Shown here: positions 3,499 to 57,236 of the stretch, one piece after another
Position numbering within the stretch: the first letter of the stretch is position 1
Layout of the letters: each line of letters begins with the position of its first letter
From: Eledone cirrhosa
Taxonomy: Eukaryota
Assembly (NCBI GenBank): GCA_964016885.1
Contig: OZ024743.1
Coordinates: 201,748,001-201,812,000 of the forward strand
DNA: 64,000 nucleotides
Direction: 5' to 3'
Notes under the pieces: generated by a model
Databases searched by the model: none
Told to the model about the DNA's origin: nothing
The model's input: the letters and a program-made list of their open reading frames with translations, nothing else
Translations under genes and position numbers: made by a program

Positions 3499-3840
3499 TC
3501 AATAATATTAATAAATGGAAACTATATTTATAAAATCCATATTTATTCTATTATATATATTTCAAGGGTACCAAAACTTTGGTACGCTCTCATCAGATAA
3601 AATACAAAGTTTGTTTAATAAATATTGACATATCCAGGAACGAGATCTTAACGGTTGAAGTTTTACCTGGATAGTAAAACTTGAACCGTTAAGATCTCGT
3701 TCCTGGTTATGTCAATAGTTATAAAACAAACTTTGTATTTTATCTGATGAGAGCGTACCAAAGTTTTGGAACCGTTGAAATATATATAATAGAATAAATA
3801 TGGTTTTATAAATATAGTTTCCATTTATTAATAATATTGA
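3499..3840. mobile_element. About 340-bp fold-back element with a hammerhead motif in each arm, embedded in (TA)n
   Basis: 3499-3666 is the near reverse complement of 3673-3840. HHR at 3736-3796 (+) and 3544-3604 (-). Confidence 0.85.
3736..3796 (+). ncRNA. Type I hammerhead ribozyme motif
   Basis: TATTTTAT-CTGATGA-gagcgtaccaaagttttggaaccgtt-GAAA-tatata-TA-ATAGAATA, with 8-bp helix I. Confidence 0.75.
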
Positions 3841-5169
3841 TATTATACTCCAGAAAACCTGTCGAGCACTTCAAATCAACTATAAATATATATATATTTG
3901 TTGAATTACCAACAAATTGAATATCCCTTTGCTTATATATATATATATATATATATATATATATAAATATATATATATATATATATATATATATATATAT
4001 ATATATATATATATATATATATATATATATATATAAATGGAATAGAATGAAACGAAATTTCATTTCTCACTCTTAGTACGGCACTTACTTAAATGTAAGT
4101 ATGTATGTATACGAACATACATATATGTATACAGACGTACAGTAGTATGTATATATATATACATACATGCACACATATATAAAGTATAGAAAGTATAGAA
4201 ATTGTTGTAGCAAGAAGCTAACAGTATTCCATAATATATAAGTGACAATAGCGTCAACATGGGAAAATAGTTAACATATGATATGGGAAAAATAATTCAA
4301 ACTTAATTCAAAAAAGAATCAGGATATAGATTTATCCAACAGAATTTAGAGAAATCCAGGGAAAAATCAATAGAGCCTTAACTCATGATAAAACAAAGTC
4401 TAAAGTACTCATCCTTCAATTTGGGATAACTTCAAATGCTCTGTATAGTCTTGAAAATACTATTTCACGAAAACTTTCAGTGGAGATGGTCACAGTTGGA
4501 TTTCGTTCATCAGCAGAGCTCAACATGGTAACCAAGGTCTCACTGATTAATATGCCTAAAAGTGAATTTAATATACATATATTCCAGAAAGAGAAAAAAT
4601 ACATATGTTTTATATATACAACCATATATATATATTCCGAGATATTTATTAATATGTGCATTGATTTATTTACATATATACACATACATGTTTTTATGTG
4701 TGTAAGTGTGTGTGAGTGTGTTTGTTTGTGCGTGCGTGCGTGTGTGTATAAGTGTGTATGTATATACACACCACGCACTCACATACACATATATAATTTT
4801 TCGTAGATCTAAAAGAATTAAATTTTTCATTCTTAATACTTATATTACATTATTTTGAACGGTAGGAAAATGTCGGCAAATCAATTGTATTTATGAAATG
4901 TATTGATTTTAGTGAAAAGGTAAAAGAAAACCTAATAGAATGTATGAAATACAAGAAATAAAATTGAATAAAACCTTTTAATCTATGAAATACTAATTTA
5001 TGTAGCTTAGTGGGAAAAAACAAAATATAGACATATTCAAAATGATAGATTAATAAAGAAGGAGAAACTGAGTGAAATGCGATTAAAATAGTATCATCAT
5101 CATCATCATCATCATCATCATCATCCTCATAGTAGTACTGCTATTATTATTATTATTAGTAGTAGTAGT

Positions 5170-5703
5170 AGGGCGGTGGATTGGCAGTATCGGTAGAGGG
5201 TCGGACACCATGCTTTGCAGCATAGAGTTACGGCCCTTTATCATCTGAGTTCAAATCCTGCCGAGGTTAATTTTGCCTTTCATCCTTACGGGGTCGATAA
5301 AATAAAGTACCAGTCAGGCACTGGGATCGATTTAATCGACTTCCCCTTCCCTCAAATTACTGGCCTATATAAGAAACCATTAGAGTTACGGCCCTTGCCA
5401 TTCTGAGTTCAAATCCCGCCGAGGTTAACTTTGCCTTTCATCCCTACGGGATGCACTGGCTAATTGCTGGCCTTGTGCCAAAAGTAGAAACAATTATTAC
5501 TAGTAGTAGTAGTGGTGAATTGGCAGTATCAGTAGAGGGTCGGAAACCATGCTTTGCAGCATAGAGTTACGCCCCTTTATAGTGTGAGTTCAAATCCCAC
5601 CGAGGTTAACTTTGCCTTTCATGCTTACGGGGTCGATAAAATAAAGTACCAGTAATACACTGGGTTAATTGCTGGCCTTGTGCCAAAAGTAGAAACAATT
5701 ATT
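5170..5703 (+). mobile_element. Cluster of three head-to-tail family A SINE copies (one 5'-truncated)
   Basis: Family A motifs repeated at about 5170, 5382 and 5512, flanked by (TAG)n/(TAA)n. Confidence 0.8.
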
Positions 5704-7340
5704 ATTAGTAATAGTAATAGTACTAGAAATAGTTGTAGTAGTAGAAGTGGGGTGGTGATGGTGGTGTTAGTATATGTGGCAGTAGTGGTAGTAGTAGTAG
5801 TAGTAGTAGTAGTAGTAGTAGTAGTATCAGTGGAGGAGGAGGAGCATGAGAATTCATTGGTTTTGTAAGTAAACGATACACCAAATACATATTTTGCAAA
5901 CAGCAAATAATTAATTCTCTTATATGCTGAGATGAAGAAAAAGAGAGAGAGAGAGAGAGAGAGAGAGAGAGAGAGAGAGAGAGAGAGAGAGAGAGAGAGA
6001 GAGAGAGAGCGATAGATAATGAGTGACAAAGAAAATAGAGTAAAAGAAAGAGAAAGAAAATCTTTGCAATATGTATATATATTAATATATATATATATAT
6101 ATATATATATATATATATATATATATATATATATATATATGTGTGTGTGTGTTGGTGTGTGTGTATATATATATGTATATATGTATATATATATATATTT
6201 ATATATGTATATATATATATGTATATATATATGTATAAATATATATGCATAAATATAGATATATACATATACATACATAAATACATATATATATATACAT
6301 ATATATATATATATACATACATATATATATATATGTATATATATCTATATCTATATATATCTCTCTCTCTCTCTCTATATATATATATATATAGATAGAT
6401 ATAGATAGATATATATATATACATTACATACAGAAATATTGAGGAATTGAAAGTAAACATGAAACAAATAACAAAAAGAAATACATTAATAAAAAATAAA
6501 ACCAAAAGACTCAAAAATAAACAAAATACAATTAAAATCACAAGAAATAATCTACAAGCCAAAATGGATGTCAATTGTGAAAGAAATGTATTTAATCTTT
6601 TTTCCTATTGAGTTTATGTTTATATTAAGTTGGAGCTGAATTCTAGAATACCTGAGATGTGTGTGGGTCACTTAGAAAAAAAAACATGATATACACACGC
6701 ACACATATATATGATCTAATTTATTCTTTGAGCCACGTGCCCACCTGCATATATTCCCACTGGATGTGTGAAGGCTTCTACATAACCCGGACACATTCTC
6801 CCAACTTGTAGAAAACTTATAATGAAACAATTGTTTGGAAAAGGAGATATATTTTAATTATGTCTCATATAAAATAATACTACTGGCCTTCCGCAAAATA
6901 CATATAGTTAGCACCCCAAACGTAAAATTGGGATTATACTAAGGTATATCCTAATATGTTTGTTGAGTGAGATGGAAGCCAGTCAGAGTATAGCTTAAAG
7001 CTTTCTCTGTTAATGTATTGTATCTATCTATCTATCTATCTATCTATCTCTCTCTCTCTCTCTCTCTCTCTCTCTCTCTCTCTCTCTCTCTCTATATATA
7101 TATATATATATATATATATATATATATATAGTTAAAAGAATAGAGGTGTAACACACAAGTTATTATATATTGGTAAACGGAATAGAAAATGCTGACAAAT
7201 TGTTCACAGTTGAAAAATGGTTTAATTAGGAATAAAAGAGTATTAGTGATTGTATGGGTTAGTATTCAGTTGTGGTTTTAAGTTTTTAAGTTTTTACCGG
7301 TTGCGCATTTCTAAATGCTTTTCAAAAATAATTTTGAGAT

Positions 7341-54940: not shown

Positions 54941-56143
54941 AATGTGAGGGGGAGAAACTGACATTCGTTGGTCCTTAAAGGCATTTCCTGGACCCTATCA
55001 CATAAGTAACATTTTACAATAATTAGATTTTATATATTCAAATGAACTTCAGATATTAAAAAAATAAGTTTAAAAAGAATTTATTATATCAAATAAACAA
55101 AAAATAATACATAGACATTTGAAAAAGTGGGAGAGGGGACTTGTCCTCTGGTACCCCCCATCCCCCTTGAAACAAGGCCCTTGACTGGGTCATATACGTT
55201 CTTGAGGCTAGGGAGTAGAACGGATGTGTTTTGTCAAAGATCATATTATGGAGTAGCATAACTGGTAACGATTTGTCCGTATGTCAATGATTTTGTTCTC
55301 TGAAAGGATCGTAAACAATTGATTAAAAAAACTACATTACATTATCTTATTCCTTCATCGTTTAACCTTATATATATATATATATATATATATATATATA
55401 TATATATATGTATATAGTGGTCTGGATAACCAAAGATGTGGGTTCGACTCCCATGTACGTCAATACTCATCTTTTTCCATTTATCTGAGGGTTCTAAACC
55501 CCATTATCAGACTAAAATTTCTTTAGTCAAAAATACGGTGAAAGCTATTCTATTTTCTAATATATATATATATATATATATATATATATATATACAAATG
55601 TAATTTCAGCAAGATCGAATTTCGGCAGTGTTCGAAAACAAAGCGAAACTCAATTTTCGGAGTTATGCGGCAAGCGCTCCATGGACTAAAAAAATACCAG
55701 AGCAATACACATAGGTTATATAGGCCAAACAAACTGAGCATGGCGGTCAAGAAGCCATCAGCCACCTAAGTAAAAAAAACGAAGCAAGCTAAACAGGTCA
55801 AACAAAAGAATATTTACCTGTATATATATATATATATATATATATATAAATGTAAGTCCAAAGAATCATTAGAGAAAATATATACAGTATTTCCTCTCCC
55901 AATCAGTATAAATTAACCACACAAAAAATCATATAAACGAGGTTATAAGTTTAAAATGTACTTATGAAGAAATAATAGATAAATGATATAGATACTTTTT
56001 CCGGAACGTACAACTATATTACATCTACCTAGCATTTGTCCTAGCCTGTAGAAATTGACTAGACAAATAGTTAACTACACAGAATTAGGTACAATATTGA
56101 AGTTAGAAGAAAAAATGCACATAAACTTTACCAAAATTCTTAG

Positions 56144-56222
56144 TCTCAACCGGCGGTTTCGTTCCACTTTTTGATATATCCGGTCTTGGATAAATCCACG
56201 AGGCTCGGAACTCATCAGGAGA
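56144..56222 (-). ncRNA. Type I hammerhead motif with expanded helix II loop
   Basis: Reverse complement reads TCTC-CTGATGA-GTTCC...GGAAC-GAAA-CCGcCGG-TT-GAGA. Confidence 0.8.
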
Positions 56223-57062
56223 TACCTCAGACTGGACTATGATTCTTCTACCATGATCCCCAACAGAAATGAATTCAAAATGGCTAAGAACCATCATGTG
56301 TCCAGTTGTCAAGGCAGAAAGTTTGTGATTGGTGCCTGTCGGCGAGTAGGCTGGTTGCTAGTTATATATATATAGTTCAGATATTAAGGGCGTTTACCCG
56401 TGGAAGTTACGCTGTAACGCCCTAAGGATAAACCGGTTTAAGCAATCGAAAATAACTTCCCGTCAGTAATGTATCCTCAGCAAAATGTTGGTGATTAGGC
56501 GTGACGGAAATGTTCTTAAGACAAGGTTACATTTACATAATTGTTTCATAACATAATATATGTTTCAATGACATGGTTATGCAACGGTTTTCTAATTGAC
56601 AGTCTCCATGTGATATCATCAGATGCTCATACAATTATGAGATGTAGTTATGTAAGTAGGCTGATATGCCACTGGTAATGTATTATATATATATATTTAC
56701 GCATATTCATATATTATCAACTTCCGTCAGTCTCGAAAGACCAAGGATCTGCACTTGGAGAATATTTTTCCATCTTCTGATGGTGGTGAAGCGTCTGGTG
56801 TTGCTGTGCATGTCTGCTCGGGAGTCGCACTGAAGTCGGTCCAAGGTGTTACCCATAATTTTTTTCTTTTCTAGTAGCCTCTAGTTAGAAGTGTAAGCAG
56901 CCGGTTATCATAAGCTACATTGGTTACATTTGAAATTGCATTGTAGTCGTTGCAATTAACGCCTTCGCACAGCATCCCAAAGAAGCGGTATTTGATTCCT
57001 CGCAGGCACTATATTATATATATATATATATATATATATATATATATATATATATATATATA

Positions 57063-57236
57063 TATGAAAAAGAACACAAGAGCGTCTACAACATCAAAAG
57101 ATTTTTATTGGCTTACAATGTTTCTTCCTTACTTAACCGATAGCTCTGACGAATCCTACGGTTACGTAAGGAAGAAACATTGTAAGCCAATAAAAATCTT
57201 TTGATGTTGTAGACGCTCTTGTGTTCTTTTTCATAT
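57063..57236. mobile_element. Short fold-back element with hammerhead motif at 57143-57187 (+)
   Basis: About 70-bp inverted arms. GCT-CTGACGA-aTCCTACGgttaCGTaAGGAa-GAAA-CAtTG-TA-AGC. Confidence 0.8.

Follow-up and report, generated by a model that had tools for sequence, protein, structure and literature searches.

The window analysed here (64,000 nucleotides of Eledone cirrhosa, contig OZ024743.1, positions 201,748,001 to 201,812,000 of the forward strand) contains seven loci, numbered 1 to 7 from left to right, at which two arms of one repeat family are inserted head to head into (TA)n. Four of the families involved (F1, FB, F5 and F7) are assigned by their motifs to the Hydra clade of Penelope-like elements (PLEs), and two (F3 and F6) are non-coding repeats with hammerhead ribozymes (HHRs). 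The anatomy and orientation of the insertions, the pairing of their ends, the variants common to both arms and the links to coding elements are directly observed; from them we infer that the insertions were probably made by twin target-primed reverse transcription of one RNA. A more specific version, in which a PLE dimer is programmed to prime twice at two hairpin-marked sites of the RNA, would explain the inverted copy, the one-sided tail and the palindromes that resemble miniature inverted-repeat transposable elements (MITEs), and with circular retrozyme RNAs as templates the same machine would produce back-to-back rolling-circle arrays; we give this version an even chance.

Divergent arms with two fixed ends

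The seven loci had been described in a sequence-only reading of the window, and self-comparison of the window bears out its basic observation that the left arm of each locus reads on the minus strand and the right arm, of the same family, on the plus strand. A structural descriptor (0 calls in the reversed-sequence control) also found the HHR cores to read outward, as that reading had it, but complete type I HHRs are not present in every arm. Both arms carry them only in loci 1, 3 (12 copies) and 5; locus 7 has a complete HHR in the right arm only, the left arm ending inside stem II; in loci 2 and 4 the core is the variant CAGAAGA, found family-wide, and one of the five arms passes the descriptor; and in locus 6, where stem II is atypical, one of the two arms passes. 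An Rfam scan of the window showed no hammerhead family among the best 150 of its 190 matches. The (TA)n claimed for the borders is present as a (TA)5+ run within 4 nt at 12 of the 14 borders originally given and is displaced at the right borders of loci 1 and 7 (gaps of 46 and 95 nt), because the elements run on as a tail to ~3935 and ~57331. Locus 2, taken for one locus (13697-16060), proved to be two adjacent insertions (13697-14668 and 14685-16057) with a TA run between them: the arm starting at 14685 is closest to that at 15829 (97.9%), while the arm starting at 13697 matches the others at 93.7% and 95.8%.

The orientation was tabulated in an unselected sample of the 3.0-Gb genome, consisting of 28 blocks of 20 kb (560 kb) at fixed round coordinates; of 29 blocks fetched, one of pure satellite was left out of the HHR sample. 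In it, 39 HHRs were called (control: 0), not all of them independent, which corresponds to about one HHR element per 14 kb. A (TA)6+ run lies within 250 nt downstream of 33 of the 39, compared with 17.5% of random positions, and upstream of 7 of the 39, the same as background; the (TA)n density of the window (5.1% of bases) is close to that of the sample (5.3%). Same-family neighbours on opposite strands are divergent in 10 cases and convergent in none, and the four convergent neighbours belonged to different families. Among 150 loci from family searches, which kept the best 30 matches per family, a divergent neighbour within 1.5 kb was found in 64 and a convergent one in 6. Complete exact-match lists for one contig, C1, gave 143 arms of F7 with 19 opposite-strand pairs within 10 kb, all 19 divergent, where 0.23 pairs are expected. 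Of 34 F3 loci, 29 are two-armed and all 29 divergent; the other five comprise three single arrays (two of them probably one insertion counted twice), one locus cut by a gap and one running beyond the end of the stretch. The twin-armed architecture is real, pervasive and far above chance: orientation is not random, (TA)n adjacency exceeds background, and the small palindromes of F1, FB and F7 have PLE partners.

The two arms of each locus differ in where they finish: one has a short end, its partner extends 30-113 nt further to a long end, and (TA)n lies beyond both. This pairing of one short with one long end recurs in 29/29 two-armed F3 arrays (11 chosen without end selection, 7 by the short end and 11 by the long end), in 19/19 F7 pairs (16 scored by script, 3 by direct reading), in 6/6 F5 pairs, and in 15 of the 17 F6 loci scorable by eye among 21 distinct two-armed ones. 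F1 copies were selected by the tail; of their 16 divergent neighbours, 15 have the short end, and so does the 16th after a deletion. FB ends scored as 'x170-181', which probably represent short ends whose alignment ran on through TA, were excluded from these counts. An assembly artefact (chimeric palindromic reads) or a stacking of independent insertions in one TA tract has a negligible probability as the source of such pairs: elements do cluster in common TA tracts (13697-20151, the source of the misreading of locus 2), but the fixed short and long ends, the absence of TA at the inner junctions, the 19:0 orientation bias and the recurrence in about 30 tail clusters all argue against it.

The lengths and contents of the arms bear on whether one was copied from the other. 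Either type may be the longer (16 versus 13 cases in F3, 9 versus 12 in F7); arm lengths show no correlation in F7 (rho -0.06) and little in all 29 F3 arrays (rho 0.26, p 0.17). Summed F7 arm lengths range from 215 to 3,201 nt and junctions differ between copies. In F3 the phase of the unit at which the arms meet varies from array to array and does not coincide with the ribozyme cleavage site; the overlap is 0-4 nt in 16 of 29, and the others have longer overlaps or short inserts. Five F7 loci (L123, L143, L290, L293, L294) have a long-end arm that consists of tail sequence only and has nothing in common with its partner, so neither arm was copied from the other. For most loci the label 'fold-back', used in the sequence-only reading, is therefore inappropriate. 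The same loci contradict self-priming as a general route, i.e. the model in which a single cDNA or antisense template snaps back and copies itself while the endonuclease trims the ends, which was proposed for the Adineta Penelope (PMC3846280), with the tail ascribed to endonuclease resolution (PMC8557442). Overlaps of 8-18 nt at RNA stems in the junctions of some F3 arrays, symmetrical F1 palindromes joined at a pseudo-palindrome together with short snap-back pieces, and the identity of variants in both arms are what self-priming would predict. However, in non-tandem elements the short-end arm can exceed the tailed one in length by a factor of up to 20 (e.g. in L276), and there the tail could not have been copied from the short arm. 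With the tail-only arms excluding it as the general route, self-priming is improbable as an explanation of the loci, although it may remain a minor route.

Shared variable sites are identical in both arms of 27 of 29 F3 loci, compared with 79 of 812 between-locus pairs, and F3 units are nearly invariant within an arm while loci differ; this points to one template and to a monomeric, probably circular, stage. The main rival here is that two RNAs are held by one dimeric enzyme, its monomers working in a fixed register (one short, one long) on RNAs from the same source locus or on a multimeric transcript. It accounts equally well for the end rule, for arm lengths that are independent of each other and for arms made of tail only, and one RNA need not be read twice by strand displacement. 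On the other hand, F3 has more than 1,000 loci and many variants, so that two separate RNAs would be expected to differ in many cases, whereas the arms match in 27 of 29 loci, and the asymmetry of the monomers would itself call for an explanation. We regard two RNAs as rather unlikely, and twin priming on one RNA as the better account.

Coding PLE families and non-coding repeats

Families F1, FB, F5 and F7 are represented by loci 1, 2, 4, 5 and 7, which by their continuity with coding copies are identified as truncated 3' ends of four coding Hydra-clade PLE families, not as parasites or MITEs. F5, F7 and FB exhibit YRDD followed by VVY/IVY..YVG/YIG, i.e. a predicted reverse transcriptase (RT) and C-terminal GIY-YIG endonuclease (EN) in that order, and the F1 copy retains RT-EN remnants. 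RWK/RWR is found in the N-termini of F5, F7 and FB, and DKT in F7, FB and, in a shifted frame, F5; the F1 copy lacks its N-terminus. A CxCX5C linker is present in F5, F7 and F1 (in F1 by eye) and was not seen in the frame read of the FB copy, and CxxC..E and N..E..CxH are present in F5, F7 and FB, CCHH being absent. All four families combine an HHR in the pseudo-long terminal repeat (pLTR) with (TA)n insertion; in FB the core is a variant, CAGAAGA replacing CUGANGA throughout the family (15901 and 24178 in the window, and copies in the sample). Sequence searches of Pfam, NCBIfam and PDB gave no significant match for the Hydra proteins, and the putative clade assignment follows the motif signatures of PMC8557442.

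The small insertions are tied to coding copies family by family. Locus 7, a 170-bp palindrome, matches the pLTR of the coding Hydra copy L149 at 99-100%, and the tail continues into the open reading frame (ORF). FB (loci 2 and 4) sits 0.8-1.0 kb behind Hydra endonuclease ends in several loci, and the RT fragment of locus 2 shares 96% identity with the coding copy linked to FB in L040. For locus 1 the match (93-95%) is to the end of a Hydra copy in L276, where F1 lies ~1.5 kb behind the RT-EN region and where the short arm measures 2.9 kb and the tailed arm less than 0.3 kb. The MITE-looking palindromes are thus retro-derived, as the sequence-only reading had proposed, the arms of F1, FB, F5 and F7 being continuous with RT-EN ORFs. 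Its 'spectrum of non-coding HHR parasites' is not supported, since loci 1, 4 and 7, like that half of locus 2 which has no coding sequence, are copies of coding Hydra-clade PLEs with 5' truncation of both arms, and the expected link of each small family to a coding PLE was obtained for F1, FB and F7 and not, within 1.56 Mb of fetched DNA, for F3 and F6.

The same continuity refutes, for F1, FB, F5 and F7, the idea that the small palindromes are TA-targeting MITEs or foldback DNA transposons with chance HHR-like motifs. Mutator elements that target TA microsatellites are reported (PMC4486113), and F1 palindromes do cluster near 340-440 bp, because both their arms stop at one site; this suggests a strong RT stop or an RNA 5' end that gives them a MITE-like look. 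With (TA)n on both flanks, any target-site duplication would be masked. All the pairs scored, however, have asymmetric ends, F7 lengths are not fixed, junctions vary between copies, the same arms run into PLE ORFs, and no transposase-linked copy turned up among the fetched loci, although no search was aimed at one. As an explanation of the palindromes at large, MITEs are very improbable.

F3 and F6 are the only families of the seven loci that appear, from their unit structure, to be non-coding retrozyme-type tandem repeats (locus 3, 311-nt unit; locus 6, ~527-nt unit). The F3 unit is low in GC, contributes 12 HHRs to the window and contains no ORF of 120 aa; its circular fold is predicted to be more stable than that of 60 shuffled sequences (z -3.7). 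At least 1,030 exact long ends of F3 were found genome-wide, and the first 13 on C1 were all F3; the short-end patterns (4 and 17 places) carried a subfamily-specific letter of the window and so yield no family count. A ceiling on array length near 4 kb was considered and rejected, as arms of 5.8, 6.0 and more than 6.4 kb exist. Other tandem units, ~73% like F3 and with the same tail region and TA end (L077:5784-6574, L157:1948-2364, L060:116-463), may represent a wider hairpin-less retrozyme group. Cyclic 340-nt contigs of the F3 unit appeared once in each of three runs, and were not used, as a circle and a tandem array are indistinguishable in them. In F6 the HHR core boxes are present and stem II is long and atypical.

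A bulged hairpin in the tail is a candidate start-site signal of the Hydra-linked families. A de novo screen of the fetched loci yielded 156 one-tailed inverted insertions in 33 tail clusters, overlapping loci being counted repeatedly. In 15 of the 33 clusters a hairpin of the form RYUC-stem-loop-stem-bulge-GARY starts no more than 20 nt from the short end, compared with a mean of 1.0 and a maximum of 5 over 500 shuffles; its first pair exchanges A-U for G-C, and the bulge is 2 nt in 12 clusters. This descriptor was tightened from a looser one with a background of 12%. F5, F7, FB and F6 carry a second hairpin past the long end (shuffle rates of 3-7% for each family); it was missed with a 2-pair inner stem and found with one pair, so the descriptor for it was modified in the light of the data. 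Folded freely, the end regions by themselves gave no common structure. Within the 1.56 Mb of fetched loci the hairpin is the only feature that F6 has in common with the Hydra-linked families, and it makes F6 look like a parasite of Hydra elements; F3, whose tail is 30 nt long and has no such hairpin, may use a PLE of another clade. The proposal that autonomous PLEs and non-coding repeats share one TA-targeting integration mechanism survives in part: the footprint is common to both, but a single enzyme is probably not responsible, because locus 3 lacks the Hydra-linked hairpin and because TA also borders the end of a Neptune-like PLE of the window.

Anatomy of the loci and neighbouring elements

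Locus 1 (F1) consists of a short-end left arm (3499..3679, minus strand; HHR 3544-3604), whose outer end is at (TA)n, and a long-end right arm (3674..3935, plus strand; HHR 3736-3796), in which the tail 3841-3935 is followed by (TA)n and carries the bulged hairpin at ~3847-3867 (plus strand), with one mismatch in this copy. In locus 2, insertion 2a (FB, 13697..14668) has two arms, a long-end arm on the minus strand from 13697 to ~14640 (pLTR and 3' untranslated region, UTR) and a short-end arm of only 25 nt on the plus strand (14642-14666). Insertion 2b begins at the TA run 14669-14687 with a short-end FB arm (14685..14872, minus strand), followed by a right arm (14872..16057, plus strand) in which an RT fragment is joined to the FB end, the endonuclease and 3' UTR being missing, and which continues with the variant HHR (15896-15946), the hairpin (15973-16018), the long end and (TA)n. 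Locus 4 combines a short-end FB arm (23715..23840, minus strand; HHR stem III partly deleted) with a long-end FB arm (23845..24334, plus strand) bearing tail and hairpin.

Locus 3 comprises ~6.1 units of F3 with six HHRs on the minus strand (16421..18315), with the short end at (TA)n, and ~5.9 units with six HHRs on the plus strand (18328..20151), with the long end (~30-nt tail) at (TA)n. The 12 nt between them (18316..18327) contain pieces found in both arm ends and, judged by eye, are of the templated-insertion type. Locus 6 has a long-end left arm (41734..42410, minus strand) of ~1.3 F6 units at (TA)n, with an HHR-like motif (41901-41960), a hairpin (41817-41840) and a 113-nt tail, and a short-end right arm (42403..42555, plus strand).

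Locus 5 has as its left arm a 5'-truncated inverted copy of F5 (31625..34333, minus strand), which includes the endonuclease end, the 3' UTR and an HHR (31661-31720) and has its short end at (TA)n. The right arm (34333..39172, plus strand) is a partial tandem, in which a pLTR with HHR (34714-34773) and tail precede a frameshifted Hydra ORF with predicted RT and GIY-YIG domains (~34981-37116), the 3' UTR, a second HHR (39009-39068), a hairpin (39110-39130) and the long end at (TA)n. A degenerate second HHR-like copy is located ~1.45 kb upstream of the terminal HHR in the F5 3' UTR (33157-33174 and 37568-37585), and also in other F5 copies. In locus 7 (F7) the short-end left arm (57063..57138, minus strand) is cut inside HHR stem II, and the right arm (57139..57331, plus strand) includes an HHR (57143-57187), a tail (57236-57331) with hairpin (57242-57263) and the long end at (TA)n.

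The twin-armed design is not universal among HHR elements of the window, as those at 16279-16392, 24453-28757, 54381-54536 and 56144-56222 are single-armed; further single-armed elements or isolated HHR calls are at 50138-50173 and 4438-4519. The one at 24453-28757 (minus strand), which we take by its motifs to be a Neptune-like PLE, encodes an RT, a cysteine linker and GIY-YIG, has a direct 98-nt repeat at both ends and no inverted arm, contains an HHR-like core (24676-24704) and has its 3' end at TA. Its family occurs in inverted pairs elsewhere in the genome and forms an 11-member tail cluster without the strict hairpin. A non-LTR (long terminal repeat) element with a restriction-like endonuclease, presumably R2/NeSL/Dong-like, occupies 11970-13624 (ORF 12357-13544) and ends in (TAA)n; a perfect 96-nt inverted copy of its own 3' end (11970-12065) forms a similar inverted footprint in a non-PLE. 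At 54567-54939 a 123-nt inverted repeat has a TA run in its middle, the opposite of the seven loci, and no other copy in the fetched DNA. A large dispersed repeat family with tRNA-like heads (Rfam tRNA matches e.g. at 23181-23251 and 49393-49463) covers 21303-23622, 28751-30800, 39700-41636 and 42690-51620. The block omitted from the genome sample (C7:30000001-30020000) is 20 kb of pure ~276-nt satellite.

Proposed twin priming and its relation to known systems

The closest biochemical precedent for the proposed route is Poseidon_Ac, for which nicking and extension of both strands of an AT-rich target, two RT start sites bounding the tail and a predicted dimer have been reported from work in vitro (Frangieh et al. 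2024, PMC11167929). The two start sites and the nicking of both strands, taken together with the arm data presented here, lead us to infer that reverse transcription is target-primed twice. The RT-GIY-YIG protein, which probably acts as a dimer, would bind the RNA near its two start sites, in the Hydra-linked families marked by a bulged RYUC..GARY hairpin 2-10 nt beyond each, and would nick both strands of a palindromic TA tract. One nicked end would prime cDNA at the downstream site, giving the tailed arm, and the other at the upstream site, giving the short arm; both cDNAs would halt at mostly unrelated points and be joined by 0-6 nt of microhomology or by short templated inserts. Arrays of the 311-nt unit would owe their internal uniformity to a monomeric circular template copied in repeated rounds, and the small palindromes would be early-stopping products, not a mobile MITE class. 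Single-armed F7 copies with TA on the 5' side too (L120, L126, L129, L146) suggest that the TA tract pre-exists the insertion.

Several observations weigh against this account. Insertions with a single arm, or with no partner in the stretch, are common (e.g. 8 of 30 F6 loci and three clear F3 arrays), so that twin priming is not obligatory, and the end rule has two exceptions among the F6 loci, L159 (long/long) and L164 (short/short). A weak correlation of arm lengths is seen in the 18 F3 arrays that were selected by an end (rho 0.53, p 0.02). In F1 (L001-L030) the 5' ends of both arm types pile up within ~40 nt at a CCWGG pseudo-palindrome, though the query forced arms to reach that far, and the short inverted pieces in L008, L010, L018 and L024 are not intact to the short end; from these F1 data, snap-back copying may also occur at times. 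Two RNAs of a single source locus, or gene conversion at a later time, could also account for the shared variants. Several HHRs of the window are variant or broken. No coding partner homologous to F3 or F6 was found in the 1.56 Mb of fetched DNA (~0.05% of the genome), no hairpin was found at the F3 ends by the descriptor applied to either end, and the precedent of Poseidon comes from another clade than the families described here. Poseidon_Ac also differs in that its start sites lie inside the ORF and here just upstream of it, and in the available text of PMC11167929 its two sites are not linked to the two arms of one inverted insertion.

The Hydra clade of C-terminal EN+ PLEs, as described by Craig et al. 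(2021, PMC8557442), inserts into (TA)n in almost all families, has an inverted 5'-truncated copy with a one-sided tail (legend of fig. 2), and includes Penelope-13_HM with HHRs on both strands. The families of the window resemble it in RWK/RWR, DKT, the CxCX5C linker, CxxC and CxH around E and N, the canonical HHR and (TA)n; they differ in their tails (70-113 nt compared with 30-40), and their 3' UTRs measure 0.9-2 kb. The strict pairing of short and long ends and the bulged hairpin were not found in the available text of that study. In Schistosoma, min-HHR pairs on opposite strands 100-700 bp apart were ascribed to truncated PLEs (Cervera and de la Pena 2014, PMC4209133), and in the Adineta Penelope head-to-head units are the most frequent, with the tail at one inverted pLTR and one target duplication around the unit (PMC3846280). 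Opposite-strand HHR pairs, head-to-head units and the one-sided tail are common to these systems and ours; the self-priming on an antisense template suggested for Adineta is contradicted here by the tail-only arms.

F3 and F6 resemble the metazoan non-LTR retrozymes (Cervera and de la Pena 2020, PMC7229834; Li, Clavereau and Pollet 2026, 10.64898/2026.07.22.740005) in being non-coding tandem units, with a type I HHR in F3 and an atypical HHR-like motif in F6. Both studies describe head-to-tail arrays (the word 'inverted' has 0 occurrences in the available text of PMC7229834), whereas each array reported here is a head-to-head pair of arms bounded by two fixed ends in (TA)n. PLEs have been proposed as the mobilising partner of retrozymes, and Li et al. 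describe homology to the pLTR of an autonomous PLE; no pLTR homology to a partner was found here in 1.56 Mb, and circular RNA is predicted.

Head-to-head inversion, the tail and (TA)n targeting are thus already published for PLEs, as are opposite-strand HHR pairs and PLEs as candidate drivers of retrozymes. The short-and-long pairing, the variants common to both arms and the tail-only arms are added here; for the end rule, back-to-back retrozyme arrays, the hairpin and PLE twin priming we found no earlier account in the accessible open-licence literature, the supplements of the 2026 preprint lying outside it. The origin of tandem and inverted PLE structures and the choice of microsatellites were listed as open questions in PMC8557442, and the 2026 preprint calls the mobilisation of animal retrozymes unresolved. 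The end rule, shared variants and tail-only arms turn the questions of PLE structure and retrozyme mobilisation into a sharp in vitro test, and provide a physical footprint, beyond co-occurrence, that connects retrozyme arrays with integration of the Penelope type. In practice, genomes of this kind should not have their short TA-embedded palindromes annotated as MITEs. PLE RTs are the sister group of telomerase, and an RNA signal for start-site choice would therefore be of wider interest.

Twin priming is known from L1, where cDNA synthesis on a single RNA is primed from both strands of the target and microhomology joins the two products, leaving a 5' inversion. The second primer of L1 anneals at a variable internal site, and the two pieces do not duplicate each other. 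At the loci described here, in contrast, both cDNAs would start at fixed, nearby sites, and the result is an inverted repeat.

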